This document shows, one piece after another, positions 2,298 to 21,944 of a DNA stretch of 64,000 nucleotides (within the stretch, counting starts at the first letter, position 1; every line of letters begins with the position of its first letter). The position numbers were made by a program, and so were the translations under genes. Origin of the DNA: Eledone cirrhosa. Its lineage: Eukaryota. The notes under the pieces are model-generated. The model searched no databases. It was given only the letters and a program-made list of their open reading frames with translations, and was not told the origin of the DNA. The stretch is taken from assembly GCA_964016885.1 (NCBI GenBank), contig OZ024742.1:52886001-52950000 (forward strand), in the 5' to 3' direction.

Positions 2298-2494
2298 AAC
2301 AATAATAATTGTTTGAACTTTAGGCACAAGGCCAGCAATTACCCAGTACATTACTGGTACTTTATTTTATCGACCCCATCAGGACGAAAGGCAAAGTTAA
2401 CCTCAGCGGGATTTGAACTCAGAATGTAAAGGGACGTAACTATGCTAGAAAGCATAGCGTCCAACCCTCTACCGATACTGCCAATTCACCGCCC
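2298..2494 (-). mobile_element. tRNA-derived SINE, full length, with (ATT)n on both sides
   Basis: Starts GGGCGGTGAATTGGCAGTATCGG directly after the E1 (ATT)n tail; B box GAGTTCAAATCC; ends GGCCTTGTGCCTAAAGTTCAAACAATTATTATT. Confidence 0.88.
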
Positions 2495-2764
2495 AATAAT
2501 AATAATAATAATGATTTCATTTATTGGCCACAAGGGCCGACATATAGGGGACAACACAATAGACAGGGACAGTGGGGGTTTACATAGAGATCGAGTAAGT
2601 ATAAATAACAAAAAACAAAATAACAATAAAAATACAACAATGAAAGTTCCCCAATAAGAGGGATCACCACCCAGGGTTGACTCAAGCACCCCACCAGTCC
2701 TGAGCCACCCGACGCTCCTAGGGCACCCGGGAAGGGCACCCCTCTCCTTCTCGAATTCACCAGC

Positions 2765-5700
2765 CTACAGGCGCATGATCAGAGTAGGCCCACTCACGCG
2801 GGCCATTCTCGCCACATTCACCCACCTTTCAGTAAATGTACTGGGGGGCAGCACTTCTCTCTCCACCCTCACCTTCCTTTCCAAGTGAAACTTGAAGAAG
2901 TTGATGAGGGATTGGCCGAAGAGAAAAGTGTCTGTCTTCAGTCCTTTCAACCTGGTCCACCATGCAACCTCTTTCGCTACTGCCACCAGGCAGAGGAAAA
3001 TTGCCTGCCCTTCCTGACCAAAAGAAGGCGGCGGGTCAATCTTCACTATGGACTCGGACGATAGCCGGATCCGTTCTACACGCGACAATAGCTGTTCGAC
3101 ATAACCCCACAAGTCAGCAATGCACGGACACTGGACGAGTGCGTGCAGAACGGTTTCGTCGCTCTGCGCGCATCTCGGGCAGGTTCGTCTGACAGCACTT
3201 CCGTGCCTGTAGAGTTTATCCCGAACCGGCAGCGCCCCCCGGTAGCACTGCCAAGCGAGGGATTTCTGGAAGTTATCCATCGTCCCCGGCTCGAAAGTCC
3301 TCCGGAACATACTGGTCAGTTCTACTTCGTTGACGCCCAGAGCCTCTCCTAGTACGTCATCGCACTTGCCCTCCACTAATCCTCTATAGAAATCTTGAGT
3401 GGAAGTTCCACTGACCGCATTGCCCACCCTGCAGAGTGCAGTGAGCGCCTGGCAACATTCCAGATGCCAGTCGCCCAGTCTCGGTCTCTTCTTGACCCAG
3501 GACTGCAGCTCAGTCAAAGAGATGAGCTGCGGAAAGGCCCGTCTAACAAACGGCGACCACACCTGTTCACCGTTTAGGCAAAATATCTGGAGATGTCGCA
3601 GCCTCAGCGCATGTCTGCGCATCATTAGCCACGGCATGCCCAGCCCTCCACGAAGAGGGTGCTGGCAGCAGATGGACCGCCTCACCAACGGGACCCGTCC
3701 CCTCCACAAAAATTTGAAAAGGAGCCGTTCCAAATTGGCGAGGCGTGGACGGGGGCAAGGCACGACGGTCAGGCGGTAGTAGATGACGGACGCGATGTAC
3801 GCGTTCGCCACCTCCGCCCGCCCTTTCAGTGATAGCTTTCTCTCAGCCCATTTCTGGGTGAGGTTGGCTATCCTGCTCGTCACCTCGTCCCAATTCTTAT
3901 CCACCTGGAGGTCTGGTCCGAACCAAACCCCGAGCAACTTTACCGGTCCGTCTGTCCAGCGCCCAACGACGCTGTTGGACGGCATGGACTTGCCTCTCCA
4001 GGTGCCGAGCTGCAAGCCCACCGACTTTTCCGGGTTAAGTTTTGCTCCCGTCAACCTTTCATATTCCTCCAAATGGGTGCGGATCACCTCGATTTCCGAG
4101 GTGTCCGACACCATCACGGTGATGTCGTCCGCATAAGCGGACGCAGCCTTTCTACGTCCCGGTTCGAGCGGGATGCCCTGCAACAACTCCAGCTTCCGCA
4201 GTAGAGGCTCAAGAGTCAATACGTACAGAAGTGAGGATAGAGGGCACCCTTGACGGACCGATCGAGAGATCTGAAACGGTTCCGAGAGGTGGCCATTAAC
4301 TTTGACCACCGAGCGGATGCCACTGTACATTGCAGCGATCCAGCTTCTGAAGACGGGGCCGAAGCCAGCCGCCTCGAGGACAGCCTCCAAGTACCGATGG
4401 TCGACCCTATCGAATGCTTTCGATTGATCTAAATTGATCAGAGCCCCACCGAAGCCAGGTTTGCACCCAACCCTCTCTATGATGTATCGCATGAGGTGGA
4501 GGTTGTCGTGTATGGACCTGGTCGGGATTGCGCAAGTTTGCGCCTCCCCAACCAAATCTTTGACGACAAGCGCCAACCTTTTCGCTAACACCTTGGCCAA
4601 AATCTTAAACTCTGTGTTGAGCAGGGTTATGGGCCTGAAATTATCTAGTGTGTCCCTCTTGTTCTCGTCTTTCCTTATCAGCGTCACTACGCCACGGCTC
4701 ACAGAACTGGGAATGCTCCCGTTCTGCTGCCAGTTGCAGTAGAGCGCTTCGAGGAGATCGGAGAACAAGTCTGGCATATTTACGTAAAGCTCGTAGGGCA
4801 GACCATCCAAACCGGGTGACTTGCGACTCGAGCAGCTGACAAGGGCGTCCTGAATTTCGGCTGATGTTATCGGCTCTTCGCAGCGCTCAGCGTCGGCCGT
4901 CGAGAGGCGTGGCAAGCCGTCGAGGTAGGGACTGAAGTCCGCCGCCTTCTCCGACTCACCCATCCTCCCGAACAATCGAGCAAAGTGCTGGCGAAAGGCC
5001 TCACACATCTGCTTGGAATCGCTCAGTTCGTGTCCATCTCGATCCGTCAAAGACCGAATTGTGGTTTTATTTCCACGCTGCGTCTCTGCAAAGCGAGCCC
5101 ATCGGGCAGCTTTGGTTCCCTCGTTCCTCAGAGCACGCGCCTTAGCTCTGACAATGCAACCTTCGTGTTTCGCATTGAAGAAATGGTCTAGTGCCATTCT
5201 CGCCGCTAGCACGTCTGTTGCAATGCCACTACAAATAGCCTCGTCTAACTTAGCTATCAGCCCCTCCTCCTTTCTATTTTTCTCTATTGCTACTTCTTTG
5301 CTAAATCCTATCGAGGTTGCTCTAATCTCTCTTTTGAGTGCCCCCCACCACCTGTTGTTGACAACCCCCCCTGTCAACTTTTGCTTAACTAAGTTGTTGA
5401 CCCGGTCCCTGTAAGCTTTACGTGCCGGAAACGACATGTTTAGCTTCCAGTAGCTAGGTCCTAACCTACGTGTCTTATCTAGGTCGACCATACAGATCAC
5501 AAGCTTGTGATCTGAATAGGCAACCGTTTTAAAATGTGGACATCCTACACTATTTCTATCTCTTTTCCTAATGAAAATCCTATCTATGTACGATCTAGAT
5601 GACCCTATGCGATTGGTCCAGGTCCATACTGGCGCATTAGGGAAATCTAGTCGGTACCTGTCAGACAGTTGAAACTGGCTGATCAGGTACTTGAGGCTTT

Positions 5701-6184
5701 TGCACCCCCCGCTCCTATCAGATACTCCCACACAATCCCAGCGTGCTTCTAAGATGCCATTCCAATCCCCTATTAACAGTAAAGGGCGAGACGTAAGCAG
5801 AAAGTTTTCCAGGCGCCTAAAGAAGTCCGGCCGACCGGCCCCAGTAGGGGCGTAGACGGCCACCAGTCTAAAGGCACCACCTTCGCTATTGCTCACGTCC
5901 AGGACCACCAACTTTCCGTCAGGATCCCGGAAGATTGACCTTACCTCGAGATCCAGACATTTCCTAAACAGCACAGCCACTCCACCTCCCATTCCCGGCC
6001 GACTAACAGATGCAAAGATCTGATAATCGTCGAAAATCGGCGCCAGTGCGCGTGTGTCGGAAATTCTGGTCTCGCTGATGGCAATTACATCCATTCCTAG
6101 TGACCTGAGGTCGTTGAGCAAGTGACCTTGCTTCCAGGGCGACCCCAGGCCACGAACATTTAAACTTCCTACTCTTATGGCCAT
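2765..6184 (-). CDS. E1 ORF2: APE endonuclease + reverse transcriptase + C-terminal zf-RVT, intact 1139 aa
   Basis: SLNVRGL, SETR, VYAP, IGDWN, YIDRIF, SDHK (APE); KSPGLDGLP, FRPITLLN, LDQSKAFDRV, RQGCPLS, AYADD (RT); CPRC..ETVLHALVQC; WKLN linker typical of L1/Tx1. Confidence 0.97.
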   Translation of the reverse strand: MAIRVGSLNVRGLGSPWKQGHLLNDLRSLGMDVIAISETRISDTRALAPIFDDYQIFASVSRPGMGGGVAVLFRKCLDLEVRSIFRDPDGKLVVLDVSNSEGGAFRLVAVYAPTGAGRPDFFRRLENFLLTSRPLLLIGDWNGILEARWDCVGVSDRSGGCKSLKYLISQFQLSDRYRLDFPNAPVWTWTNRIGSSRSYIDRIFIRKRDRNSVGCPHFKTVAYSDHKLVICMVDLDKTRRLGPSYWKLNMSFPARKAYRDRVNNLVKQKLTGGVVNNRWWGALKREIRATSIGFSKEVAIEKNRKEEGLIAKLDEAICSGIATDVLAARMALDHFFNAKHEGCIVRAKARALRNEGTKAARWARFAETQRGNKTTIRSLTDRDGHELSDSKQMCEAFRQHFARLFGRMGESEKAADFSPYLDGLPRLSTADAERCEEPITSAEIQDALVSCSSRKSPGLDGLPYELYVNMPDLFSDLLEALYCNWQQNGSIPSSVSRGVVTLIRKDENKRDTLDNFRPITLLNTEFKILAKVLAKRLALVVKDLVGEAQTCAIPTRSIHDNLHLMRYIIERVGCKPGFGGALINLDQSKAFDRVDHRYLEAVLEAAGFGPVFRSWIAAMYSGIRSVVKVNGHLSEPFQISRSVRQGCPLSSLLYVLTLEPLLRKLELLQGIPLEPGRRKAASAYADDITVMVSDTSEIEVIRTHLEEYERLTGAKLNPEKSVGLQLGTWRGKSMPSNSVVGRWTDGPVKLLGVWFGPDLQVDKNWDEVTSRIANLTQKWAERKLSLKGRAEVANAYIASVIYYRLTVVPCPRPRLANLERLLFKFLWRGRVPLVRRSICCQHPLRGGLGMPWLMMRRHALRLRHLQIFCLNGEQVWSPFVRRAFPQLISLTELQSWVKKRPRLGDWHLECCQALTALCRVGNAVSGTSTQDFYRGLVEGKCDDVLGEALGVNEVELTSMFRRTFEPGTMDNFQKSLAWQCYRGALPVRDKLYRHGSAVRRTCPRCAQSDETVLHALVQCPCIADLWGYVEQLLSRVERIRLSSESIVKIDPPPSFGQEGQAIFLCLVAVAKEVAWWTRLKGLKTDTFLFGQSLINFFKFHLERKVRVEREVLPPSTFTERWVNVARMARVSGPTLIMRL

Positions 6185-6213
6185 GCTGGCAGGATGAATG
6201 GGAGAGGAAAGGT

Positions 6214-6837
6214 TTACTTACCTTCCGGGGTCTTGTGAAGGTCGGGTGGTTCGACCTCCATGGTTTGTGGGGTTTCTTTTGGGAACCCCTTTAATAGTCT
6301 TGACGTGGGTTTTACGTTCGGGGTTCCCACATCCCGAGGAAAGCTCTTTCGAATTTCTTTGTATGAAGCGAGCGACATTCGCATCAGAAGCAAATTATCT
6401 GGTACGCGAAATGTGCTCGCTTCAAATGTTTCCCCGTCTTTTTCGATGTTTGTGCTTCGTGCTACATGGGCCATCAATTCCTTGTTGGCCCTTCTGGCAA
6501 GCACGAAGTTTTTAATGTTTTGTTGCTCGGGTTTTATTTGTTCGTGTGATTGTGGTGGTGATAGCTTTGTTAGTGTTGTTTCTATTGTGTCTGCGTTTGT
6601 TGTGGGTGGGGTGTCTGTAGTTTCTGATGTTTGTGTGTCTATTTGTTCTTGTGTCTGTTTAGCTTGTTTGCGTTTGGGGGATTTTGGTGGTTGTGTTGGT
6701 GATGCTGTGGGGAAAATGTTTGTGTGGGTGGTGTGTGTATTTTTTTTTTGTGGGGGTGTTTGTGCTTTGTGGATTTCTTTTTTTTTTGTGTTTTGTTTTT
6801 TGTATTTTGGGGGACTTTGGTTTTCCCTCATCTTCAC
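6214..6837 (-). CDS. E1 ORF1 C-terminal part in the +1 frame (frameshifted continuation)
   Basis: Its C-terminal segment (NKELMAHV..PDNLLLMRMS..YKEIRKSFPRDVG) aligns by eye with the E2 ORF1 C-terminus (NKKLMTYI..PTNIRLLKIA..YTNIKTKFPNAVG); stops about 30 nt before the ORF2 ATG. Confidence 0.7.
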   Translation of the reverse strand: MKMRENQSPPKYKKQNTKKKEIHKAQTPPQKKNTHTTHTNIFPTASPTQPPKSPKRKQAKQTQEQIDTQTSETTDTPPTTNADTIETTLTKLSPPQSHEQIKPEQQNIKNFVLARRANKELMAHVARSTNIEKDGETFEASTFRVPDNLLLMRMSLASYKEIRKSFPRDVGTPNVKPTSRLLKGFPKETPQTMEVEPPDLHKTPEGK

Positions 6838-8125
6838 TGCTGGAGGATGAGGGGTCTGTGGCTGTGAGCGTGTTTGTGTCTGAGTGAGTGTTTATGTTCT
6901 TGTTCGTGTGTGTATTTTGGGGGGGAGGGGGAATGGGAGAGCTTTCCTCGTTTCCCCCCTGGGTGTGCAATTTTGGTGATTCCATTGTTGACGGTGTTGC
7001 TGGTGGTCCTTGTCCCGGCGTCGCCAGCAGTGGAATCTTTCGACCCCTTGCGCTTTTCGGCAGTTGAGGGCAGAAGGCTCGCAAGTGTGTCGTTTCCCCA
7101 CAAAGGAAACAATGCGGCCTTTTCCCCTCAGTCATTATATGCAACACCCTCCCGTTTTGGAGGCGGATGTGGTCCGGGATTGCTTTTACGTTTTCGGGTC
7201 TGATTTGGAGCAGTATCTCCAGATCAACCCCGGACCAGTCGTCCCTGGCAGTTCTCGTTGCCTCTACCGGGACTGTATCCGTTCCTTCCAAGATTACGCA
7301 ACCCAGGAGCCACCACATATCAAGTCCTGGTGGAATCCTGGGAATGCGCACACGTGCTATTCGTTTTCCCATGTGGGAGGGGTACATTATGACCTTGCTG
7401 GTTTTGCAAGGGGTCATTGAATGCTTCACAGCGAGGGCTTCAGACTTGAACAGCACCGAAACGGTGCCGTATTGCCTGCCCCTCTCTATGAAGTCTGTGT
7501 CCTCTCTGATGTATTTCAGTGCGGCTTCTATATCAGCTTGGGTGATTATCGCTGCCCTCTTTGTCTCTACTGAGATGCATCTGAAATGCACCGTTCTTTT
7601 TTCCACTGCCTCAATGGCTTCTGCCGGGACAGTTAAGTTTGCCCATGTCTGCTCTTGATTTATGATTTTCCAGGCCTGGGCCAACTTTTCCTCTCTGTTG
7701 GTTAAGTCGATGCTGTAGCATGGTCTCCTTTTAGCCGCTGCCACAGCAGCGAAGGTGTTCTTGTTGGTGTTGTCACTGTTGTTGTTCTTGTTGGTGTTGC
7801 TGCTGCTATTGCTGTTGTTGTTCTCCCCTGTGTCGTGGTTACCCTCTGTGCTGTTGGCCTTGTTGGTGCTGTTGCTGTCGCTACTATTACTCTCTGTGCT
7901 GTTCGTTTTGTTGGTGCTCTCGCTATTACCACCTTCTGCGCTGTTCGGCTTGTTGGTGTTGGTGTTGTCGCTGTTACCACCTTCCGCGCCGCTCGGCCCG
8001 TTGGTGCTGGCACTGTCGCTGCTCACATTCGTGCTGGTGGCGCTCCTCGCCTCACCTCTCCTCTCAACGCTCAAGTCGCCGTTGCACGACAGCAGACCCG
8101 CCTCTAGGGGGCGTGGCTCCGCCAT
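6659..8125 (-). CDS. E1 ORF1 nucleic-acid-binding protein, N-terminal part
   Basis: ATG at 8125 in aaaaaacATGG context; Asn/Ser-rich N-terminus, TFAAV motif, RRM-like core, CFLCGETTHLRAFC zinc knuckle. Confidence 0.85.
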   Translation of the reverse strand: MAEPRPLEAGLLSCNGDLSVERRGEARSATSTNVSSDSASTNGPSGAEGGNSDNTNTNKPNSAEGGNSESTNKTNSTESNSSDSNSTNKANSTEGNHDTGENNNSNSSSNTNKNNNSDNTNKNTFAAVAAAKRRPCYSIDLTNREEKLAQAWKIINQEQTWANLTVPAEAIEAVEKRTVHFRCISVETKRAAIITQADIEAALKYIREDTDFIERGRQYGTVSVLFKSEALAVKHSMTPCKTSKVIMYPSHMGKRIARVRIPRIPPGLDMWWLLGCVILEGTDTVPVEATRTARDDWSGVDLEILLQIRPENVKAIPDHIRLQNGRVLHIMTEGKRPHCFLCGETTHLRAFCPQLPKSARGRKIPLLATPGQGPPATPSTMESPKLHTQGGNEESSPIPPPPQNTHTNKNINTHSDTNTLTATDPSSSSSEDEGKPKSPKIQKTKHKKKRNPQSTNTPTKKKYTHHPHKHFPHSITNTTTKIPQTQTS

Positions 8126-8604
8126 GTTTTTTTGAGAAAAAAAATTATTATTTTTTCCAAAATAAAGTTCAAATATTTGGGCCAAAAGGCCCAAATATTA
8201 TGAGTTATTCCTTCACAGGATACAAATGAATGTCTTATAATGCTTCAGCGGTACAAAAAAATAAACAATTCTCCACAATTAATCCTCAAAAAATTGCTTA
8301 CTCACGGAGCTTCAAAAAACGTACATCCACTTTCGTCAATAATAATAATAATAATGATTTCTTTATTAACCACAAGGGTTTACATAAAGTAGACATTAAG
8401 GACAGTGCAGGACAATGCAGGACGGTACAAATGGGCATTTCTGCGTGTAAAAAACAAAAACAGAGGATGTAACAAAAATAACAATGAAAAATTCCCCAAT
8501 AGGGGGGAGACTTCGGAGGGACATTTGTGGAGAAAGCCCAGTAAAAAGCCACAATGACCCTGACCACCAAGGCAAGTGCCCTCTCCCAGTTTTCCACCTT
8601 TAGT

Positions 8605-11600
8605 TTACAGATATATACTCAGAGTCGGCCCATTCTCTCGGGCCATTCTTGCTTCTCTCACCCATCTTTCAACAAAATGCTGGGAAGAGAGCACTTCCCT
8701 CTCTAGTCTGATTTTCCTTTTCAAATGAAATTTGAAAAAGTCAATCAGAGCATCACCGAAGAGGTAAGTGCTCGTCTTCAGCCCTTTCAAACGTGTCCAC
8801 CATACTATCTCTTTCGCCATGGCCACCAGACAGATAAAAACTGCCTGCCCTTCCCGGCTAAAGGAGGAGGGCGGGGCAATCCTCACGATGGACTCAGATG
8901 ATAGCTGGATCCGTCCTAAACGCGACAGCAGGTGTTCGACATAAACCCACAAGTCAGCAATTTTCGGACACTGGACGAGTGCGTGCAGGACGGTTTCGTC
9001 GCCCTGCGCGCATCTCGGACATGCCCGGCTGACGGCACCTCCATGCCTGTAGAGTTTATCCCGAACTGGCAAGGCTCCTCGGTAGCACTGCCAGGCCAGA
9101 GATTTCTGGAAGTTGTCCATAGGCCCCGGCCCGAAAGTTCTTCCGAAGAGATTGGCTAGTTGATTTTCGTCGACGCCTAGAGTTTCCCCAAGTACGTCGT
9201 CGCTCTTCCCCTCCACTAATCCTCTATAGAACGCCGAGGTGGAGTTTCCACCGATCACATTGCCCGATTGGTCGAGGGCTGTGAGCGCCTGAAGACATTC
9301 CAGTCTCCAGGCGCTCCCTCTCGGTCTTCGCTTGACCCAGGACTGCAGCTCCGTCAAGGAAACGAGCTGGGGAAAAACGCGTCTAGCAAACGGCGACCAC
9401 ACCTGATCACCGTCGAGGAAGAGGTGGAGATGTCGTAGCCTGAGCGCGTGCCTGCGCATCATCAGCCACGGCATGCCCAGCCCTCCACGTAGCGGGTGTT
9501 GACAACAGATGGACCGCCTGACCATCGGAGCACGTCCCTTCCACAAAAAGCGAAAGAGCAAACGCTCCAGCGTAGTCAGGCGAGGCTTAGGACAAGGTAC
9601 GACGGTTAGGCGGTAGCAGATGACAGACGCGATGTACGCGTTAGCCACCTCCGCTCGACCTTTCAGGGATAGCTTCCTCTCCGCCCATTTCTGGGTGAGA
9701 GAAGCCACCCTGCTCGTCACCTCGTCCCAGTTTTTGTCCGTCTGGAGGTCCGGACCGAACCAGACCCCTAGCAATTTAACCGGTCCGTCCGTCCAGCGCC
9801 CGACGACGCTGTTGGACGGCATGGACCTGCCTCTCCAGGTGCCGAGCTGCAGGCCCACTGACTTTTCCTGGTTGATCATTGCTCCTGTCACCGCTTCGTA
9901 TTCTCTTAGTGTAGTGCCGATCGCCTCGATGTGTTTGGCGTTCGACACCACTACGGTGACATCGTCCGCATATGCTGACACGGATCTTCCGCATCCTAGT
10001 TCGCGCGGGACTCCCCTCAACGTCTCCAGTTTGTGCAGTAATGGCTCGAGAGTCAATACGTACAAGAGGGACGAGAGGGGACATCCTTGGCGGACCGAGC
10101 GCATGATGTTGAACGGTTCCGACAGGTGACCGTTCACTCTCACCACAGAGCAGATGTCGCTGTGCATGGCAGCGATCCAGCCTCTGAAGACGGGCCCAAA
10201 GCCAGCCGCCCTCAGGACTGCCGCTAGGTAACGATGGTCGACCCTATCGAAAGCTTTCGACTGATCTAAATTGATCAAGGACCCACCCGTGCCAGGTTCC
10301 CTAGCTACCCTCTCTACGATGTATCGCATGAGGTGGAGGTTGTCGTGGATGGATCTGTCGGGAATGGCGCATGTCTGCGCCTCTCCCACCAGACCACCAA
10401 CGACAAGCGCCAACCTCTTTGCTAGCACCTTGGCCAAAATCTTAAACTCTGTGTTTAGCAGAGTTATGGGCCGGAAATTGTCTATGTTATCCGCCTTGTT
10501 CGGATCCTTTCTCAGCAGTGCCACCGCTCCTCGGCTCACAGAACTGGGAATTCTCCCGTTCTGTTGCCAGTTGCAGTAGACGTCCGCCAAGAGGCCTCCG
10601 AACAAGTCTGGCATCTGTACGTAAAGTTCATAGGGCAGACCATCCAAACCAGGCGATTTACCCCTTGTGCAGCCAGTCATTGCCTCCCGTACTTCAGCGG
10701 CTGTTATCGGCTTTTCGCAACACTTCGCCTCAGTGGCCGAGAGCCGCGGCAGTCCGTCGAGGTAGACACTAAAGTCCATCCCTCTACCCGGCCCCCCGCT
10801 GCCCCCGAACAGCTGAGCGAAGTGTCGCTGAAAAGCTTCACACATTTGCCCGGGATCGAGTAGCATGCGCCCGTCGTGGTCCACCAAAGACCGGATCGTG
10901 GCTTTGTTGCCACGACGCGCCTCCGCCACTCGGGCCCATTGAACGGCTTTCGTCCCCTCGTGTCTGAGAGCACGCACCCTAGCTCTGACAACGCAGCCTT
11001 CGTGCTTTGCATTGAAGAATTGGTCAAGGGCCAATTTCGCCGCAAGCACGTCGGTCGCAATGCCTTTGCTAAGCGCCTCGTCTAATTTTCTAACTAGTTC
11101 TCCCTCTGCTCTATTTTTCTCTATTGCTAAAGCCTTACTAAACCTAATCGATTCTATTCTAATCGCTCTTTTCAGAGCAAACCACCACTTGTTGTTGACG
11201 ATGGCCCCCGTCAACGCCCGCTTAACTAGTTCGCTAATCCGGTCTCTGTAGGCCTTGCGCGCTGGTAAGGACGCGTTTAGCTTCCAGTAGCCGGGTCCTC
11301 GTCTATGAAGCCTATCTAAGTCAAGCACCCAGGTCACGAATTTGTGGTCCGTGTAGCTGACTATCTTGAATTGTGGACAGCCTATGCTAGACCTATCTAT
11401 TTCCCTACAAAATACTCTATCTAGATATGATCTGGATGACCCTATGCGGTTTGTCCAAGTCCACATTGGCACATTCGGGAAATCCAATCGGTACCTGTCA
11501 GACAGTTCAAAACGCCTGAGCAGGTTGGTGAGGCTCTTGCACCCTCCAGCCCTATCCGCTAATCCCACACAGTCCCAGCGTGCATCTAAGATCCCGTTCC

Positions 11601-12024
11601 AGTCGCCCACTAACACTAAAGAGCGGGACGTTCCAAGAAAGGTCTCCAGACGCCGGAAGAAATCAGGCCGCCCTGCTCCTGTCGGGGCATAGACGGCCAC
11701 TAGCCTGAAAGCTTGCCCGTCTCCGCTGGTCACGTCCAGCACCACCAGCTTACCCTCTGGGTCCAGGAAGATGGCCCGTATGGCGAGATCCAAACCTCTC
11801 CGAAAAAGCACAGCAACTCCTCCACCCGATCCAGGACGGCTGGGAGATGCGTACACATCGTAGCCGCCGAAGATCGGTGCGAAGGCCCGTGCTTCGGAGA
11901 TTCTGGTCTCGCTGATGGCCACTACATCTATGTTTAGTGACCTGAGGTCGTTGAGCAGGTGACCCTGCTTCCATGACGACCCCAAGCCACGCGCATTTAT
12001 GCTGCCTATTCTGAGTGAGGTCAT
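8605..12024 (-). CDS. E2 ORF2: APE endonuclease + reverse transcriptase + zf-RVT, intact 1139 aa
   Basis: SINARGL, SETR, VGDWN, YLDRVF, TDHK; LDQSKAFDRV, RQGCPLS, AYADD; CPRC..H...C; colinear with E1 ORF2. Confidence 0.97.
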   Translation of the reverse strand: MTSLRIGSINARGLGSSWKQGHLLNDLRSLNIDVVAISETRISEARAFAPIFGGYDVYASPSRPGSGGGVAVLFRRGLDLAIRAIFLDPEGKLVVLDVTSGDGQAFRLVAVYAPTGAGRPDFFRRLETFLGTSRSLVLVGDWNGILDARWDCVGLADRAGGCKSLTNLLRRFELSDRYRLDFPNVPMWTWTNRIGSSRSYLDRVFCREIDRSSIGCPQFKIVSYTDHKFVTWVLDLDRLHRRGPGYWKLNASLPARKAYRDRISELVKRALTGAIVNNKWWFALKRAIRIESIRFSKALAIEKNRAEGELVRKLDEALSKGIATDVLAAKLALDQFFNAKHEGCVVRARVRALRHEGTKAVQWARVAEARRGNKATIRSLVDHDGRMLLDPGQMCEAFQRHFAQLFGGSGGPGRGMDFSVYLDGLPRLSATEAKCCEKPITAAEVREAMTGCTRGKSPGLDGLPYELYVQMPDLFGGLLADVYCNWQQNGRIPSSVSRGAVALLRKDPNKADNIDNFRPITLLNTEFKILAKVLAKRLALVVGGLVGEAQTCAIPDRSIHDNLHLMRYIVERVAREPGTGGSLINLDQSKAFDRVDHRYLAAVLRAAGFGPVFRGWIAAMHSDICSVVRVNGHLSEPFNIMRSVRQGCPLSSLLYVLTLEPLLHKLETLRGVPRELGCGRSVSAYADDVTVVVSNAKHIEAIGTTLREYEAVTGAMINQEKSVGLQLGTWRGRSMPSNSVVGRWTDGPVKLLGVWFGPDLQTDKNWDEVTSRVASLTQKWAERKLSLKGRAEVANAYIASVICYRLTVVPCPKPRLTTLERLLFRFLWKGRAPMVRRSICCQHPLRGGLGMPWLMMRRHALRLRHLHLFLDGDQVWSPFARRVFPQLVSLTELQSWVKRRPRGSAWRLECLQALTALDQSGNVIGGNSTSAFYRGLVEGKSDDVLGETLGVDENQLANLFGRTFGPGPMDNFQKSLAWQCYRGALPVRDKLYRHGGAVSRACPRCAQGDETVLHALVQCPKIADLWVYVEHLLSRLGRIQLSSESIVRIAPPSSFSREGQAVFICLVAMAKEIVWWTRLKGLKTSTYLFGDALIDFFKFHLKRKIRLEREVLSSQHFVERWVREARMARENGPTLSIYL

Positions 12025-12059
12025 GTTTAAAATAGAGTGGAAAAGATGGGAAAGACCAC

Positions 12060-14156
12060 TTACCGTACTTTTGGTAGAGGAGGGATGGTTTTTACATCCC
12101 TTTTCACTTGATCGTCTGGTGAAGGGACCGTTGAATCGTCCCTTCGGCTGGTCGTCGGCTCTTCTAAGAGAATGTCTGAGTATACTCTTCGATTGATGGT
12201 TCCTCCTAGGTCCCTGAAATCACCAACTGCGTTGGGGAATTTCGTTTTAATGTTTGTGTATTGTTTCTGTGCTATTTTTAGCAGTCTTATGTTAGTTGGC
12301 GTTTTGATTGGTGCTGGTATTATGTAGTCCTGTTGTGAAATGTCTGTGTGTTCAATTATGTAAGTCATTAGTTTCTTGTTGTGTGTGTTTATTGCCGTGC
12401 ATTTGTTTTTCTGGGGGTGGGGTGTGGTTCTGCTATTTTCTTGTCGTTGTTGCTGGGTGTGTGTGTTTTGTTGTTGTGTTTGCGATGTTGGTGCTTGTGG
12501 TGGTGGTGTTGAAGGTGTTGTTGGCGGTGGGGTTGTCGCCGGTGGTGATGGTGGTGCTGGTGTGGGTGGTGATGGTGTTGGTGGTGTTGCTGCTGTGGGT
12601 CTCTTTGCAGTAGACTTTACCCTTTTCTCATTTCTTTCCTCCCTTTTCAAAGGCGACGATGCGCTGCTTCTGCGTTTGTGCCTTCTTGCGACCTTTTGCC
12701 ATCCCTCTCCCACCTCACACTCCATGTCTGATTCTGTAAGGTCGGGGAGGGGTACCAGCTCCACTCTTTCACTTGTTGTTGTTGGTGATGTTTGCACTGG
12801 AGTCTCTGTTGCAGCTGCATTTGGTATTGCTGTTGTTGTTGTTAATATTTCCACTGCTGCTGCTGTTTTTGATTTCCGTGGCGTGGGTATGGGTGCCACG
12901 GACCTATCGTTCCTGGTTGCCGCTTGTCCTGTTGCTGGTAGCCGTGGAGCCGGATTCGGAAGGAGGGGGGTTTTCTCCTTTCTCAGGGTCTTCTCGTTGC
13001 AGAAGGCCCTGAGGTGAGTCTTCGATCCACAGCGAAAGCATTTCGGGCGTTTGCCCTCAACACTTATGGGCAGTTGAGTGCCGTTATCGAAGTCTATCAC
13101 ATCCGGGATAGCTTCGATGCACTCCTGGTTGGTTTGGATTAGCATCTCAATGGAGGAGCCGACCCAATCTTCTCTTACTTTTTTCTGTACTTGCAGTACA
13201 GTTGTTTTGTCCTCGATTCCGATTAGGACAGACGCGGCCAGCCAAGAAGGGGTCATTCCGGGGGGGACGTGGGTCAGTTTGACCCTCACAATTTTTTGCC
13301 CGCAGTAGGAGGGCACCAACACCATTTCCTCGCTCCTTAGGGTCACTACTGATTGGGCCTTTGCCTCCTGGGGTGTGGCAAAAAGTACGTCTACGGTGGC
13401 ATATTTTTTGCCTCGGGTGATGTGCGTTTTCCGCTGCCACACAGACCCCAAGGCTTTTTGTATTTGGGCCTCTGTGGCTCTTTCCACCCTACGGGATTTT
13501 GTACTTACTGTACGGTACGTGACCGTACAGTGCTCTTGGGTTTTGAAAAATTTTTCCGCTGCCTTGCAGATTGCTCGGTGTCCGTTCTTTGTCACCATTT
13601 TCTTCGCTTCCTCTAATTCCTCATTTGTTATGAGGATTGTTTCCAAGTTTTTCGCAATACCTGCAAATGAGATTGGTTTTTCTCTGCTGTTGTTGTTGTC
13701 GTCAGAGCTGCTGGTACTTTTGTTGTTGCTGCAGGTACTACGACTACTGCCTCCGCCGCTGTTGCTGTGGTTGTTGTTGGTGTTGCTGCTGCTAATGCTG
13801 TTGTTGTTTATGCTGCTGGTGATGCTGTTGCGGCTGCTACTGTTGTTTTCATTGTCACTGTTGCTGTTGTTATTACGGCTGCTACTGCTATTATTCCTGA
13901 CGTCAGACGAATGAACTGGGTTTTCGTATTTCCCGCACACCTGTTTCGTCGCTGTCGTCGTCGTCGTGGAGAAACCTTGCACGCTTTGCACGAGACTTTT
14001 CTTTTCTTTCGTCGCTTGCGAAAGAGAAGGGAGGGAGAGAGACACATTTAAAGAAGGGAGGGAGAGAGACAATCTTCTCTCTGCTGTAGTGATGATTGAG
14101 GAAGAAGAAGACGGAATGAGTGGGAGTGACGTATGAAATTTCTTTTTCGTAGCCAT
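12060..14156 (-). CDS. E2 ORF1 nucleic-acid-binding protein, 698 aa
   Basis: Asn/Ser-rich N-terminus, SFAGIAK motif, RRM-like core, CFRCGSKTHLRAFC knuckle, GWQKV..R motif, Pro/Thr linker. Confidence 0.9.
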   Translation of the reverse strand: MATKKKFHTSLPLIPSSSSSIITTAERRLSLSLPSLNVSLSLPSLSQATKEKKSLVQSVQGFSTTTTTATKQVCGKYENPVHSSDVRNNSSSSRNNNSNSDNENNSSSRNSITSSINNNSISSSNTNNNHSNSGGGSSRSTCSNNKSTSSSDDNNNSREKPISFAGIAKNLETILITNEELEEAKKMVTKNGHRAICKAAEKFFKTQEHCTVTYRTVSTKSRRVERATEAQIQKALGSVWQRKTHITRGKKYATVDVLFATPQEAKAQSVVTLRSEEMVLVPSYCGQKIVRVKLTHVPPGMTPSWLAASVLIGIEDKTTVLQVQKKVREDWVGSSIEMLIQTNQECIEAIPDVIDFDNGTQLPISVEGKRPKCFRCGSKTHLRAFCNEKTLRKEKTPLLPNPAPRLPATGQAATRNDRSVAPIPTPRKSKTAAAVEILTTTTAIPNAAATETPVQTSPTTTSERVELVPLPDLTESDMECEVGEGWQKVARRHKRRSSASSPLKREERNEKRVKSTAKRPTAATPPTPSPPTPAPPSPPATTPPPTTPSTPPPQAPTSQTQQQNTHTQQQRQENSRTTPHPQKNKCTAINTHNKKLMTYIIEHTDISQQDYIIPAPIKTPTNIRLLKIAQKQYTNIKTKFPNAVGDFRDLGGTINRRVYSDILLEEPTTSRRDDSTVPSPDDQVKRDVKTIPPLPKVR

Positions 14157-14370
14157 GTTGTTTTTTGTTTAAAATGAATATTGGGTACAAAACCCCAATA
14201 ACTGGTTATTTAACCCCGAAGGGCCAAATAACGGACAGAAAGACCCCTCTCACGAGGAGGAGGGTGTCTTTATCAACAATTTGGTTCAAGTTTTAAACAA
14301 TTTACAATTGTTTTAACGGTTAAAAATTACTATACCTTACAGAGCCGAGCCTCCGTCAACCATGGCATTC

Positions 14371-14882
14371 AATAATAATAATAATAATGACAACTATAAT
14401 GCTTTCTTTATTAACCACAAGGGTTTACATAAAGTAGACATTAAGGACAGTACAGGACAATACAGGACGGTACAAATGGGCATTTCTGCGTGTAAAAAAA
14501 ACAAAAACAGGATGTAACAAAAAATAACAATGAAATATTCCACAATAGGGGGGGGGGGGGACTTCTGAGGGACATTTGTGGAGAAAGCCCATTAAAAGGC
14601 CACAGTGACCCTGACCACAAGGGCAAGTGTCCTCTCCCAATTTTCCACCTTTAATTTACAGACATATACTCAGAGTAGGCCCATTCACTCGGGCCATTCT
14701 TGCTTCTCTCACCCATCTTTCAACAAAATGCTGGGAAGAGAGCAGTTCCCTCTCTACCCTGATTTTCCTTTTCAAATGAAACTTGAAAAAGTTAATCAGG
14801 GCATCACCGAAGGGGTAAGTGCTCGTCTTCAGCCCTTTCAAATGTGTCCACCATACTATCTCTTTCGCCATGGCCACCAGAG
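14371..14882 (-). mobile_element. 5'-truncated Tx1 3' fragment (E3), close sibling of E2
   Basis: Near-identical to the E2 3' end (8355-8830): LVAMAKEIVWWT..LKGLKTSTY..ERWVREARMAR, the 3'UTR and an (ATT)n tail abutting the E2 5' end. Confidence 0.9.
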
Positions 14883-15450
14883 ATGGGGAGAGATTACTGG
14901 CTGGAGCTGGAGCGTCCCTGATGTCGGCAGGAGGGTCCGGATGTTTGAGGTAGAATACTGACAAAATATCCGGTGTTGGTCGGAGCACAGTGTCGCTTGA
15001 GGCCAGCACATAAACAGCCGCCGAAACTTCGCCCTCAATTAGTTTGAGGTTGACTCTCTCCCGGAGACGTTTCGTGCTGTCGTGGGTGAAACGGGGGCGT
15101 TGTGTTGGCACTAGTGAGAAGCACGAGAGTACCGATAGGTTCACGAGCAATGGGTCGCATAAAGAAGCGACATTGCCCTTGAGGCGCGAAGCCAGGCAGG
15201 GTCCAGAACAGTGAGTCACAAAGACCAAGGAAAGAGGAGGTCGAAAATTGAAAAAGAATCCTGAGGTCCTGGGATGCACCGAAACGAAGAAGTGCCGAGG
15301 TGGATGCCGTGTGTGCGCGTGCATGCATTCAAAACGGCAAATTCGACAAAAGTGCAAAGTTGGAGCCGAAAGATGCTAACGCGCCGAAGAGAGGAAGCCG
15401 AAACTGGAGAGTTTTGAGAAGTGTCACAGACTGTGGAGGAAAAAATATGT
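14883..15450 (-). mobile_element. CRE-like (RLE) non-LTR element, 5'/pre-RT fragment
   Basis: RVNLKLIEGEVSAAVYVLASSDTVLRPTPDILSVFYLKHP resembles the KL.EG...AV..L.S.D.....L..KHP segment upstream of the RT in CRE-clade elements. Confidence 0.55.
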
Positions 15451-15720
15451 ATATGATGCGTTCACGTGACACGTGTCACGTACGATCAGGAACAAAATGT
15501 CGAATCGAAAGTTCGTTCACTCAACCCCGACACATATTTCCCCCTGGAACCTACCTCCGTTTAGTACAGGATTGGTGCCAAACTGTCAGGATGAAGATTT
15601 GGTCGCCACCCCCAGCAGGTCAAGCAACCACATAAAGGCCCTCACTCCCTCGCTTGAAACGAACACAATTGTTATAGGGATTAAGCATAAGATCCGTATA
15701 CTGATGATTTCTTATTAGTA

Positions 15721-15955
15721 ATTCATAAAAAGTAGATCTAAACAATGCTAAATAAGACATCATCGATCTATTCCTCCATGGCTTTGAGGTTAGAGTACTG
15801 GTCTCGTAAGCTAGGAGTCGTGGGTTCAATCCTCACTGGGGACTTCGTTAATTTTTTATTTTATTTTAAATCATGAATATCAGGAATTCATAAAAAGTAG
15901 ATCTAAACAATACTAAATAAGACATCGTCGATGTAAGCCTCCATAGCTGAAAGGT
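15721..15955 (+). repeat. Direct repeat (165-bp period) carrying tRNA-like sequence
   Basis: attcataaaaagtagatctaaacaat.ctaaataagacatc.tcgat at 15721 and 15886, each followed by (g/t)cctccat(g/a)gct. Confidence 0.75.
15772..15844 (+). tRNA. tRNA-Thr(CGT)-like sequence, probably a pseudogene
   Basis: cctccatggctttgaggttagagtactggtctCGTaagctaggagtcgtgggttcaatcctcactggggac matches metazoan tRNA-Thr architecture; acceptor and D stems imperfect; T-run about 8 nt downstream. Confidence 0.6.
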
Positions 15956-16730
15956 ACTGAATGAGTTTGTGCATTACGTCCTATAATGTGCTCATGACAG
16001 GTGCAATGTGTCTGAACACGGAAGAGCCGAACTCCCTCCGTAATCGCCCCAATCTCTCTCGCCCTCCCCATCTCTGTGTAGTGAGCAAATGGGGCCCCAC
16101 GTACTGGCTGCCCCACAGCCCCGTCGGACAGAATGGAGAAGGCGTTTCCACTGCCAAGGTCACGACCGTAAACCTGTCAGAAAGTGACCGGTACTTGGAA
16201 AGTTTGGCCTCCTCAGCTCGAAGTGCAGCAGAACCTGGGTTAGTCGCAGACTACACCAGGTTGCGGCTGAAGAAAGTGTCACTTCAAGTGGTATCCCAGA
16301 CGAGAGGTCTGCCGCCGCTGAACGGGAAGATGGTCATACCGTCTGGCCTTTTGCCATCCCCTCGGTCCAGCCCCACCGGCTGGAGCTGGGAGGGGAAGCC
16401 TGCAGCATCCAAGCCATGCTTTATGACCTCGTTGAGGGCTGCATAACGTGGAAGGCGGTCGGCACTGTAGCGACAGGAAAGCGGATGGAGGCTGAAAGAG
16501 TCCACGGTAATCCGCAGCGACATTGGTGTGGCTTGTGAGGAGAGATGCGTGGCTGTAACACGGAGCGCTGCGAAAGGTATAGAGGAGCTTTGGCATGGCG
16601 AAACAGTTCCTCAACAGGAAGAGGGCTGGGTGGTCGTCAGTCATGCCCAATTGGCTCATGAGGGTCTTGAGTTGCTGGATCCTGAACCTGATGGTGGAGT
16701 GGATGGCCGGCGGGTGGATCAGTGACCCGA
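15956..16730 (-). mobile_element. CRE-like element, degraded RT-thumb and restriction-like endonuclease (RLE) 3' part
   Basis: LFLLRNCFAMPKLLYTFRSAPCY; LQPVGLDRGDGKRPDGMTIFPFSGGRPLVWDTT; LAVET..GLWG, spread over several frames. Confidence 0.75.
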
Positions 16731-16749
16731 GGTAGTATTATCATGTGGT

Positions 16750-17200
16750 GATTGCTGGTATGATGATGGTGTATACACATATATGTTGTTGCTGGTGTTA
16801 TTGTTATTGTCACTGTTGCTCTCGTTGCCTTCCTCTTGTTAATGCTAATGATAATTGTTACTGCTACCTATTCCGGGTGTCAAGCTGGTTGCTGAATCAA
16901 CTTCTGTGAGTGAAGCTCCAATGCCTTCTTTGACCGAAGATGCGGGGTCATTGGCTTTCGTCATTTTAAAATTTGTTGAAATTCTAATAAATGTTGGGGG
17001 GGGGGGTAGATGATAAGACCCGTTACAAGATGGTTTGATTGAGGAAAATTCTCCAATGGGCAGCTCGTTCTCTTGTGTAAGTGTTGCTATTAAACGTTTG
17101 TTTTTTAAAGAATGCTCACAAAAAAGTATCAAAATCTTGGAGAAACTCACCAGCGAAGAAAACATTAGTCTACCATGTGTGAATTTATATATTCTTTTCG
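16750..17200 (-). pseudogene. Possible 5' relic of another Tx1-type ORF1
   Basis: MTKANDPASSVKEG..GSSNN followed by decayed Asn/Ser-rich codons like the E1/E2 ORF1 N-termini; compositional evidence only. Confidence 0.3.
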
Positions 17201-19564: not shown

Positions 19565-21893
19565 TCTAGATAGATAGATATATTTCTTTATTTGCCACAA
19601 GGGCGCACAAGAAAAGGGGAAAATACAAAGACATGCCGGGAATTTTACATACAGTCGTGTAAAAAATATAAAAACAAACAATTGCAACAATCGAAATCCC
19701 CAATAGGGGGGAGGCACCACAAATGAGTTGTTTAATACCCCGTCGATAGAACAACCCTCAACTGCAGGAGCGTGTTGTGCAAGTGCCCCTTTCTTCCTTT
19801 TGCTCTCTTCTTTAACCTACAGGCTTATAAACAGAGAAAGCACAATCACTCGGGCCATTTTCGCTTCATTCACCCACCTTTCAGTAAATTTACTGGGGTG
19901 CAGTGCCTCTCTCCACTCTGATTCTCATTGCAAAGTGATACTTAAAGAAGGGAATCAATTGTTGTCCGGAGAGAAAGGCATCTGTCCTCAGTCCTCTCAA
20001 TCTCGTCCACCATATAACTTCTTTCACCATAGCCAGCTCTGTACAGAGGAAAACCGCCTCTCTTTCGTTTTTGAAAGAGGCTGGCGGTTTTATCCTTATT
20101 ATGGACTCGGCAGTCAATTGGATTTGTCCCATGCGCGACAGCAGTTGTTCTGCATAGTTCCACAGGTGGGTTACGCCCGTGCAGTGTACAATTGCGTGCA
20201 GGACTGTTTCAATGTCCTGCGTGCATCTTGGACACGTCCTCTTAGAAGGATCCCTTCCGGGGCGTCCGTGCCTGTAGATCTTGTCGCGAACCGGTAGAGT
20301 TCCTCGATAGCACTGGCAGGCCAGGGACCTCTGGAAGTTGTCCATAGGTCCCGGGCGGAAAGTCCTACCAAACAGACTGGTGAACTCATCGTCTTCGACG
20401 CCCAGAGTCTCTCCGAGCACGTCGTCGCCCTTGTAACGTACAATCCCTCTATAGAATGTCGAAGTGGAGTCTCCACTGATTGCTGCGCCCGCTTGCCAGA
20501 GGACTGTGAGCGCCTAAGCGCATTCAATGTGCCAGGTGCCCATCGTTTTCGGTCTTTTCTTCACCCAGGACGAGCTGTGGGAAAGCCTGTCTCACAAACG
20601 GTGCCCATACCGGTTGGGGGTCGTTGATGAATACCTGCAAATGCCGTAGCCTCAGCGCATCTTTGCGCATCATCAACCATGGCATTCCCAGCCCTCCCTT
20701 GGAAGGGTGCTGACAGCAGACGGATCTCCTCACCAGCGGATCCTGCTTCTTCCACAGAAACTGGAAGAGCATGCGTTCCATCTTGGCGAGGTGTTCACGG
20801 GAACAAAGCGCGACAGTCAAGCGGTAGTAGATGACGGACGCTATGAAAGTGTTCGCCACCTCCGCTCGACCTTTTAAGGACAGTTTGCACTCTTCCCACT
20901 TCTGGGTGAGTGCAAACACCTTGGCCGTGACCTCGTTCCAGTTTTTCTCCACCTGGAGGTCTGGACCGAACCAGACCCCGAGCAATTTCACTGGTCCGTC
21001 CGTCCAGCGTCCAACGACGCTGTCGGACGTCATTGGTTTGCCTCTCCACGTACCGAGTTGCAAACCGACAGCCTTGTCCGGGTTTAGTTTTGCTCCCGTC
21101 AGCGTTTCGTATTCTTTCAGTAAGTTGCCGATCACCCCGATTTCCGAGGTGCTCGACACCATTACCGTCATGTCGTCGGCATAAGCCCATGCCACTTTGC
21201 GCAGTCCTGATTCTAGAGGGATGCCCTGCAACAGCTCCAATTTTCGCAATAGTGGCTCTAGAGTCAATACATACAGAATGGAGGAGAGAGGGTATCCCTG
21301 TCGAATGGAACGCGTGATTGCGAACGGCTCCGATAGGTAGCCGTTCACCTTGACCCTCGAGAAGATTCTGGTGTGCAGCGCCTCGATCCAGCCTCTGAAA
21401 ACGGGACCGAAATCGGCCGCCTTGAGAACCGCTTCCAAGTATCGATGGTCGACCCTAGCGAATGCCTTAGACTGATCCAAATTGATCAGAGCCCCACCAA
21501 AGCCGGGTTTACTACCCACCCTTTCTATGATGTATCGCATGAGGTTATCGACGACAAGCGCGAACCTCGTCGCTAGCACCTTGGCCAAAATCTTTAACTC
21601 TGTGTGGAGCAGAGTTATGGGCCTGAAGTTAATTTCGTCCCCCTTGTTCTCGTCTTTCCTGATCAGCGTTAATACGCCCTTGCCTGCCCAAATGGGAATT
21701 CTCCCGTTCTGCTGGCAACCGCAGTAGACGGCTTCGAGTACGCCAGAGAACAAGTCCGGCATGCCTATGTAAAACTCATAGGGTAGAGCATCTAGACCGG
21801 GTGACTTGCGTTTCTCGCAGCGGCCTAGAGCGTCCCGTATCTCAGTGTCCATGATTGGTCTTTCGTAGAACTCGGCGTCCGTGTTCGAGAGAC
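19565..21893 (-). mobile_element. 5'-truncated, degenerate Tx1 element (E4) with (TATC)n tail
   Basis: RT ORF 20524-21852 (LDQSKAFARV, RQGYPLS, AYADD, internal deletion after LALVV), frameshifted zf-RVT 19890-20420; 3' end CCCTTGTGGCAAATAAAGAAATATATCTATCTATC. Confidence 0.9.
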
Positions 21894-21944
21894 TAGTTCT
21901 TTATTTATCGACCTTGGTGTCCGTGTTCGAGAGACTAGTTCTTC

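Follow-up and report, generated by a model that had tools for sequence, protein, structure and literature searches.

Young L1-clade retrotransposons in Eledone cirrhosa start after (ATT)n repeats and occur in same-strand chains

The window, that is, the whole 64-kb stretch of Eledone cirrhosa DNA analysed, contains four retroelements that follow one another on the minus strand in the order E3, E2, E1 and a SINE, with exact junctions and no host DNA between them (Table 1), as the original prediction of a gap-free same-strand chain had it. Each junction is an exact (ATT)6 on the element strand, preceded by AATAAA..GAAA and followed immediately by the 5' end of the next element. The prediction had allowed six or seven units; runs are present at all three sites, always with six. 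It had also placed the E3 end directly at the repeat, from which 12 degenerate bases separate it, and the end of the chain at about 2298; the chain does end in an ATT repeat, which we locate slightly further in. The 5' junction of E3 (around 14882) lacks ATT. E1 and E2 represent different families, with 77% DNA identity over ORF2.

Table 1. Features of the retroelement chain (positions within the 64-kb window)
Feature	Position	Strand	Remarks
(ATT)3	2301..2309	-	3' terminus of chain, after SINE
SINE, 185 bp	2310..2494	-	3' hairpin with CTTGT loop at 2323-2333
(ATT)6 spacer, 18 bp	2495..2512	-	likely target-site duplication of E1
E1, full-length, 5,825 bp	2513..8337	-	3' hairpin 2526-2538, then AATAAA
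E1 ORF2, 1,139 aa, intact	2765..6184	-	APE endonuclease, reverse transcriptase, C-terminal zinc motif
E1 APE hairpin loop WTWTNRIGSSRSY	5588-5626	-	inside ORF2
E1 ORF1	6214-8125	-	frameshifted in window copy
E1 DPE-like GGATG	8324-8328	-	motif near 5' end
(ATT)6 spacer	8338..8355	-	separates E2 3' end from E1 5' end
E2, full-length, 6,015 bp	8356..14370	-	3' hairpin 8368-8380
E2 ORF2, intact	8605-12024	-	within E2
E2 ORF1, intact	12060-14156	-	RRM-like region and CCHC knuckle
E2 DPE-like GGTTG	14357-14361	-	motif near 5' end
(ATT)6 (14371-14388) and 12 degenerate bases ATTATAGTTGTC (14389-14400)	14371..14400	-	after E3 3' end
E3, 482-bp 3' fragment, older E2-type subfamily	14401..14882	-	92% to E2

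The ORF2 products of E1 and E2 carry the Pfam domains PF03372, PF00078 and PF13966, are nearer to human L1 ORF2p (E = 6.7e-58) than to R2 (2.5e-22), and are preceded by ORF1 in a two-ORF layout. Their catalytic APE residues align with those of human L1 (PDB 8sxt, 1vyb); a single-sequence fold of the APE had a pLDDT of 42.6, too low for use. Judged by these sequence features, E1 and E2 are members of the L1 clade in the broad sense (L1/Tx1), of APE-RT type. Both encode CX2CX4HX4C in ORF1, for which a Pfam search found no domain and for which atlas matches carry zf-CCHC and RRM-type domains at 0.90-0.93. This is the make-up of a Type I ORF1 (RRM plus CCHC knuckle), which is consistent with Tx1 in non-mammalian animals (PMC5203782). 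In a quick tree of 61 reverse transcriptases, which included no named Tx1 and in which the R4 and plant rows were long branches, the families of this genome clustered together with support 100, apart from the named L1-type proteins of fish, and homolog searches with these proteins returned almost no named relatives. Membership of E1 and E2 in Tx1 appears likely. The genome also harbours a sister lineage that occupies (TATC)n and whose endonuclease loop has a different tip.

Across the genome, exact sequence patterns placed ATTATT directly before the 5' end of 323 of 324 E1 copies (99.7%) and 1,678 of 1,707 E2 copies (98.3%); by chance, it lies within 4 nt of a window position in 0.4% of 5,000 random draws. 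ATT was likewise present at 8,318 of 9,671 3' flanks of E2-type ends (86%), and in all 60 top matches the junction was in phase and the upstream flanks were unrelated. On both sides, a single sequence type thus occupies far more than the >20% of flanks taken to define target specificity (PMC4494074). The expected enrichment upstream of full-length 5' ends is present and supports (ATT)n targeting, and the presence of ATT on both flanks agrees with the idea that each insertion renews the target. ATTATT occupied the 5' junction in 33/33 full-length copies versus 7/27 truncated or unassigned ones, a tally to which one copy was added by eye. Two further families also start after ATT (13/13 copies of one and 3/3 of the other), and the junctions of E1 and E2 stay in (ATT)n even where (TTC)n adjoins. 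These targets exist before insertion: among 30 copies of an unrelated repeat, the majority have a long (ATT)n and no such insertion, and three have one. Random insertion with passive survival or accumulation in ATT-rich neutral DNA, of which passive accumulation has been proposed for Waldo-A and Waldo-B near CA repeats (PMC3812793), would have to account for base-exact, in-phase junctions at 98-99.7% in copies less than 1% diverged, and for a sister lineage of the same genome that occupies (TATC)n instead; we give it practically no credence.

The spacers were originally viewed as synthesized (ATT)n tails, with E3, E2, E1 and the SINE inserted in succession, each into the tail of the preceding one. 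The 3' runs of E2 fit such tails, being long (median 13 units) and of variable length, and some carry interruptions on that side only, at the run start, so E2 may add a real tail; so do 25 of the 60 top-match 5' ends that, counted by eye, sit behind the 3' end of another such element, with three sitting behind a SINE tail. Other copies point to duplication of the target. An 18-bp flank is duplicated together with its interruption in L114, L130 and L154, with zero added bases in the first two and a 6-nt tail in the third, and a GTT interruption precedes each of the four E2 5' ends of one array by 18 nt. Spacer lengths have a sharp floor at 15-18 bp, 46 of the 51 junctions with a spacer of ≤18 bp measuring exactly 18; 48 E1-E1 spacers measure 15, 18 or 21 bp, and the mode of the E1 3' run is 6 units (16/44). 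An interruption is not duplicated in 13 of 16 informative copies; five or six of these merely cap the duplication at ≤15 bp, and the remaining ones need a shorter duplication, RNA-borne ATT or later mutation. It is likely, from these flank comparisons, that the (ATT)6 spacers behave mostly as target-site duplications, with E2 contributing no more than a short tail of varying length.

The proposed succession also disagrees with the divergence of the copies. The nearest copies of E1 and E2 are 19 and 25 substitutions away (0.3-0.4%), that of the SINE (66 copies) is at 95.9% and the nearest other E3 copy at 94.8%, a roughly tenfold greater divergence for the latter two. Being much younger, E1 and E2 must have entered an existing E3-SINE junction, and we consider serial insertion into synthesized tails improbable. 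ORF2 is intact in 22 of 36 E1 copies.

Alternatively, the 18-bp floor could come from ATT carried on the RNA. ATT at both ends would then be RNA-borne, and the site would be chosen by RNA/cDNA annealing with a weakly specific endonuclease (ATTA(T)), a specificity that the SINE displays. Two E1 copies that are 3 substitutions apart and have unrelated flanks do carry a rare interruption, 10-12 nt before the element, that the genome contains nowhere else; the 5' ATT is often missing from truncated copies, and some of these have short ATTA-initiated duplications (L184, L197). A precedent is R2, whose RNA retains 9-36 nt of upstream target and whose uniform 5' junctions are explained by cDNA-target annealing (PMC3774820). 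The inherited interruption, however, is seen for one pair only, a second common interruption (two E2 copies) is no mark of close kinship, and 5' ATT runs are often longer than 18 nt and merge into host microsatellites. We regard RNA-borne ATT as quite possible, if somewhat short of probable; it complements the duplication of the target and does not exclude it.

Elements positioned behind one another, as in the 25 top matches mentioned above, bear out the predicted polar arrays. Within three arrays, 20-76 substitutions separate adjacent copies, as they do unlinked pairs, which supports their origin by independent insertions. One E1 array of 10 copies contains an identical pair of neighbours, and its adjacent copies have blocks of private variants in common; three other arrays differ internally by just 1-6 substitutions. 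Building by insertion, as first proposed, holds for the window chain, but long single-family arrays likely lengthen also by unequal, local exchange between adjacent copies. As a general origin of the chains, tandem duplication, unequal crossing-over or assembly error is very unlikely. None of the assembled short-read contigs checked spans the window chain, which leaves room for an assembly error; tandem duplication, for its part, cannot yield a chain of three different families and a SINE, nor arrays whose members diverge like unlinked copies, and it holds for part of the single-family arrays and not for the window locus.

The SINE, which had been expected to be (ATT)n-specific, instead uses ATTA(T) sites with ordinary duplications of 12-20 bp, found in 14 of 28 copies and beginning with ATTA in 13 (0.18 for shuffled pairs). 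Its family is abundant, with 83,900 exact 21-mer matches, a figure that also counts satellites of SINE heads. A candidate 3' stem with a CTTGT loop is present in the LINEs and in the SINE. Covariation of this hairpin across five related types gave p values of 0.03 for 3-bp stems and 0.19 for 4-bp stems, and the minimum-energy fold of the SINE does not contain it; the SINE head gave no tRNA-like match with Rfam or ARAGORN. Through this hairpin, the SINE likely borrows an enzyme of the LINE lineage, with a looser ATTA(T) specificity.

Overall, we think it quite probable that E1 and E2 are young L1-clade elements whose full-length copies nearly always start after (ATT)n, and whose spacers are likely duplications arising from nicks on both strands about 15-18 bp apart. 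The APE would nick the (AAT)n strand, and the 3' end of the RNA (CUUGU-loop hairpin, AAUAAA, then AUU) would pair with the nicked end and prime reverse transcription, with little or no tail added. A second nick would duplicate the repeat lying between the nicks. The insertion would leave a target on both sides, so that same-strand chains would accumulate; in the window, E1 and E2 would have entered an ATT run between the older E3 fragment and the older SINE.

A DPE-like motif lies at element positions +10 to +14 in three of the four families, and if transcription started on the A located 18 nt upstream, within the ATT run, the motif would fall at +28 to +32. This leads to a more far-reaching and tentative proposal, which we think rather unlikely as a whole: that the target repeat is part of the element promoter and RNA, and that one endonuclease lineage, retuned from ATT to TATC, drives the SINE too. 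The RNA would begin and end with (AUU)n, in the manner of an LTR R region, and both ends would anneal to the target, giving base-exact junctions and a working promoter solely to full-length copies landing in ATT. Each 18-bp duplication would rebuild the start site, the endonuclease would have been retuned at four loop residues, and a SINE present in tens of thousands of copies would depend on the same lineage.

A literature search found no ATT-specific Tx1 and no octopus SINE partner, and the families may be catalogued in Repbase/Dfam. Kibi in (TC)n, Koshi in (TTC)n and crocodilian Tx1 in (TTCC)n/(TTTC)n are APE-type elements of the L1/Tx1 group with one microsatellite class each, as E1 and E2 are (PMC4494074; PMC3812793). 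By description only, they differ from the present families in target, which here is (ATT)n, with (TATC)n in the sister, and neither (TC)n nor (TTC)n. Crocodilian SINEU has a target preference in common with Tx1-Mar, its likely mobilizer (PMC4494074), whereas here the SINE target is the looser ATTA(T), the proposed link is the 3' hairpin, and we infer mobilization. Dong (R4 clade) is described as TAA-repeat specific, including the snail DongBg (PMC3812793), and Dong-R4 as abundant in Octopus vulgaris (PMC13282606). Its microsatellite is identical to that of E1 and E2, and R4/Dong-type elements occur in these same arrays. However, E1 and E2 have an N-terminal APE and two ORFs, whereas the R4-type elements here have a reverse transcriptase with a C-terminal restriction-like motif (by inspection) and the opposite polarity; the single ORF with a restriction-like endonuclease and no APE that characterizes Dong/R4 is not what E1 and E2 encode, and identity to the R4-type reverse transcriptase is about 26%. 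As in R2, the 5' junctions are uniform and junction variants may be inherited. R2 relies on a ribozyme and an rDNA co-transcript, whereas here an Rfam search of the 5' ends (E up to 1) gave no ribozyme match and a promoter-set start is proposed.

Head-to-tail polar arrays are also formed by Zepp and by HeT-A/TART. The predicted likeness to these elements holds for the shape of the arrays but not for their location, as the first copies listed lie throughout contigs of 380-440 Mb, of chromosome scale, and not at their ends. Unlike them, E1 and E2 are probably targeted by their endonuclease and flanked by duplications, with no telomere role seen. Transcription of HeT-A can begin within the element next to it on the upstream side (PMC1636488). 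E1 and E2 resemble human L1 in the APE-RT-zinc layout, the catalytic residues and a hairpin loop of equal length. Human L1 also makes duplications of comparable size that start at a short consensus. Unlike human L1, E1 and E2 have no 3' poly(A), target ATT and not A-rich DNA and encode a CCHC-type ORF1, and a large proportion of the copies are full-length (33/60).

How APE-type elements target microsatellites is described as not well understood (PMC3812793). With copies that are very young, number in the hundreds to thousands and in many cases keep ORF2 intact, the present families form a natural test set, in which the ATT lineage and its TATC sister, differing at the endonuclease loop tip, are a comparison pair for targeting, and the SINE gives the same duplication geometry on non-repetitive DNA. 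They also provide a likely vehicle for the highly abundant SINE and show how multi-element pile-ups arise in microsatellites. An integrator that is repeat-specific and mostly full-length is, in addition, a candidate gene-insertion tool. A recurrent downstream flank that had been considered a Dong end actually belongs to a fourth family of the same lineage, of which it is the 5' end.

The chain in the window consists of an older 3' fragment (E3), two full-length APE-RT elements (E2 and E1) and a SINE, joined head to tail by ATT repeats in contig C3 of this 3.0 Gb genome. ORF2 is intact in both E1 and E2 (1,139 aa; APE, RT and, at the C terminus, a zinc motif), and the human L1 APE catalytic residues line up with those of both proteins in an alignment. 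Their ORF2s share 77% identity, and E3 is 92% identical to E2. A CCHC knuckle is present in both ORF1s, whose look-alikes are of the RRM/CCHC type (ORF1 types are classified in PMC5203782); the window copy of E1 ORF1 carries a frameshift. None of the assembled short-read contigs compared with the region spans the chain. A splice-donor-like GTAAG lies ~30-35 nt inside the 5' end in four families, a second GTAAG followed by a pyrimidine tract is found at the ORF1 end of E1 and E2, and CAG immediately precedes the E1 ORF2 start. From these sites, it is possible that the ORF2 message is made by splicing.

Features of the chain and of related sequences (window positions unless a contig is named)
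Feature	Position	Strand	Details
E3, 3' fragment	14401-14882	-	482 bp
E3-E2 spacer	between E3 and E2	-	12 degenerate bases + (ATT)6
E2	8356-14370	-	
E2-E1 spacer	between E2 and E1	-	(ATT)6
E1	2513-8337	-	
E1-SINE spacer	between E1 and SINE	-	(ATT)6
SINE	2310-2494	-	
End of chain	after SINE	-	(ATT)3
GTAAG / pyrimidine-tract / CAG regions	8300-8337, 14330-14370, 6185-6230, 12025-12070	-	
TATC-lineage fragment	19580-21900	-	also L401-L420 (fetched loci)
Tandem E1 array	G000:C1:423,367,000-423,420,000		10 copies (L382-L388); all spacers (ATT)5

The ATT chain is real and its targeting genome-wide, a conclusion that is well supported. As the original prediction anticipated, (ATT)n is enriched upstream of full-length 5' ends: ATTATT directly precedes 323 of 324 exact genome matches to the E1 5' 20-mer and 1,678 of 1,707 to that of E2, versus 0.4% of random window positions. 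It also follows 8,318 of 9,671 E2-type 3' ends (exact genome counts). All of the 60 best-scoring 5' ends, including the two in the window, follow in-phase (ATT)2-17; by eye, the sequence further upstream was another such element in 25 cases, a SINE tail in three and other DNA in 32. In 60 3' ends sampled in position order, at least four ATT units preceded all 33 full-length copies (32 and one with a variant start), and ATTATT was present at the 5' junction of 7 of the 27 others, far above background but far below full-length copies. Two further families are likewise ATT-flanked (13/13 and 3/3 full-length copies). The repeat exists before insertion: of 30 copies of a repeat unrelated to these elements, most have long (ATT)n downstream with no such element in it, whereas in three the adjoining (ATT)n contains an E2-type copy, full-length or truncated.

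The spacers had been read as tails made by the elements themselves; they are probably target-site duplications for the most part. Of 103 copies for which the two flanks could be compared, 16 carry a base that departs from the ATT pattern in the 18 nt next to the 5' junction, and three of these duplicate those exact 18 bp at the 3' side, with no added bases (loci L114 and L130) or six (L154). The other 13 lack a repeated interruption; five or six of them limit the duplication to at most ~15 bp, and the remainder need a shorter duplication, RNA-borne ATT or later mutation. In one array, a GTT interruption lies 18 nt ahead of each of four E2 5' ends. Short spacers before E2 5' ends, counted with a pattern covering at most 18 bp from the preceding 3' end (n=51), measured 18 bp in 46 cases, 15 bp in three, and 12 and 6 bp in one each. 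Among the first 100 of 107 matches listed in a further spacer search, 48 were E1-E1 ATT spacers of 15 bp (17, nine from one array), 18 bp (25) or 21 bp (6); the other 52 belonged to a repeat of unrelated type or were short, unverified matches. Across 54 distinct junctions at fetched loci, the runs span 5 to 19 units with a mode of 6, which is also the mode of E1 3' runs (16/44). The marked 18-bp duplications, the spacer floor and the geometry of SINE insertions (below) argue for duplication, and the floor and the lack of added bases in L114 and L130 against a tail synthesized by the element. E2 3' runs are longer (median 13 units) and some have one-sided interruptions, which may mean that E2 appends a short tail or favours longer repeats.

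The SINE, first taken for an (ATT)n-targeting member of the chain, is not (ATT)n-specific. Of 30 copies retrieved, 28 have both ends; exact 12-20-bp duplications are present in 14 of the 28, versus 0.18 on average in mismatched flank pairs, and 13 of the 14 begin with ATTA. The same geometry is seen here on non-repeat DNA. All 3' ends, including that of the SINE, have a CTTGT loop on a 3-4-bp stem. Both stem sides vary between families, and these compensated changes lend the putative hairpin modest support; the lowest-energy fold of the SINE is a different one. The SINE is likely a passenger of the ATT elements. Elsewhere, 45-bp satellites built from the SINE head occur at G000:C1:1,767,386-1,768,438 and 1,981,976-1,982,446.

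Insertion in the order E3, E2, E1, SINE, each into the preceding tail, does not fit the ages. E1 and E2 differ from their nearest sampled copies by 19 and 25 substitutions (0.3-0.4%), versus nearest-copy identities of 95.9% for the SINE and 94.8% for E3, which indicates that E1 and E2 entered an older E3-SINE junction. The pair thus appears younger than both, and either of the two may have come first. In three other arrays (five E2, four E2 and three E1), neighbours are 20-76 substitutions apart, resembling unlinked pairs (medians 74 and 33); within one of them, three members are mutual nearest copies. The 10-copy E1 array has young copies at its 5' end and older ones at its 3' end, two adjacent copies are identical, and neighbours share private-variant blocks in mosaic fashion. 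One 4-copy array has a mosaic member, and internal differences amount to just 1-6 substitutions in three further arrays. These features point to unequal exchange and argue against pure insertion; multimeric cDNA or assembly error could also account for them. The window chain, with its three families and a SINE, cannot be produced in this way. At G000:C1:55,441,837-55,455,624, two E2 copies in succession, 33 substitutions apart, are each followed by the same 853-bp 3' fragment of R4 type, which may reflect local duplication or 3' transduction. Two third-family copies (L314 and L316) have an unusual 3' flank in common and different 5' flanks, which suggests 3' transduction.

A sister lineage (2,191 exact 3' matches) shares the terminal hairpin and AATAAA, but these are followed by TATC in place of ATT. 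Of 18 loci, four lacked a match to the key; the 14 short loci read were flanked 3' by TATC (13) or (TC)n (1), and none by ATT. This lineage also forms tandems, with (TATC)5 spacers, and its APE loop tip reads PSGT (one copy read) versus RIGS in most copies of the ATT families. A quick RT tree placed the ATT families and this lineage together (support 100), outside the named fish L1-type proteins, the TATC lineage being next to E1 (99); named Tx1 elements were not among the tree sequences. The nearest outside relatives (P0002-P0043), at 37-45% identity, are proteins without a name in public assemblies, and some of them belong to clusters with hundreds of members. R4/Dong-type elements (~4.6 kb; 1,141 exact 5' matches) occupy the same (ATT)n repeats in opposite orientation and form their own head-to-tail arrays (L308, L309; G000:C1).

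The ATT elements are like known microsatellite-specific APE elements in kind, and the target, (ATT)n, appears to be new; with a likely SINE passenger, the system offers an unusually testable mechanism. Kibi, Koshi and crocodilian Tx1 families target microsatellites and SINEU has a common target with Tx1 (PMC4494074), and Dong targets TAA repeats (PMC3812793). L1-Tx1 and Dong-R4 families were recently active in Octopus vulgaris (PMC13282606, PMC8967140), with no mention of their target in the portions covered; those of PMC5786205 contained nothing relevant. No report of an ATT-specific Tx1 was found in the articles searched, and the families may be catalogued in Repbase.

We infer a mechanism in which the APE would cut the (AAT)n strand, the AUU end of the RNA would anneal at the nick and prime synthesis, and a second nick ~15-18 bp away would duplicate the repeat, leaving target repeat on either side. 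R2 RNAs keep upstream target, giving uniform junctions (PMC3774820), and HeT-A shows transcription read-through (PMC1636488). More weakly, the sequence hints that the RNA may start inside the upstream ATT repeat. One interruption, 10-12 nt ahead of the E1 5' end, has exactly two genomic occurrences. The two copies concerned differ by 3 substitutions, a closeness seen in 3 of 496 pairs, and their flanks are unrelated; a comparable test in E2 gave no support for such a start. RGWYV lies at +10 to +14 in E1, E2 and the third family and is absent from the fourth. A start at -18 would place this DPE-like motif at +28 to +32, the exact spacing of the DPE, a match noticed post hoc. In Doc, F, G, I and jockey, the element is described at ~+29 to +36 (PMC1636488).

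Beyond the chain, broken pieces with an RPDG..LVWD motif lie at 14883-16700 (-) of the window, the first cutting E3 short; they had no Pfam match, and we take them to resemble a CRE/NeSL-type element. An ORF1-like 5' fragment at 16700-17170 (-), unmatched among the fetched loci, starts similarly to E2 without a preceding ATT. A tRNA-Thr(CGT)-like sequence at 15772-15844 (+) is flanked by two copies of a 71-bp repeat, and an 11-kb minisatellite at 29060-40071 (18-bp AC-rich unit, ~600 copies) is the source of many spurious ORFs.
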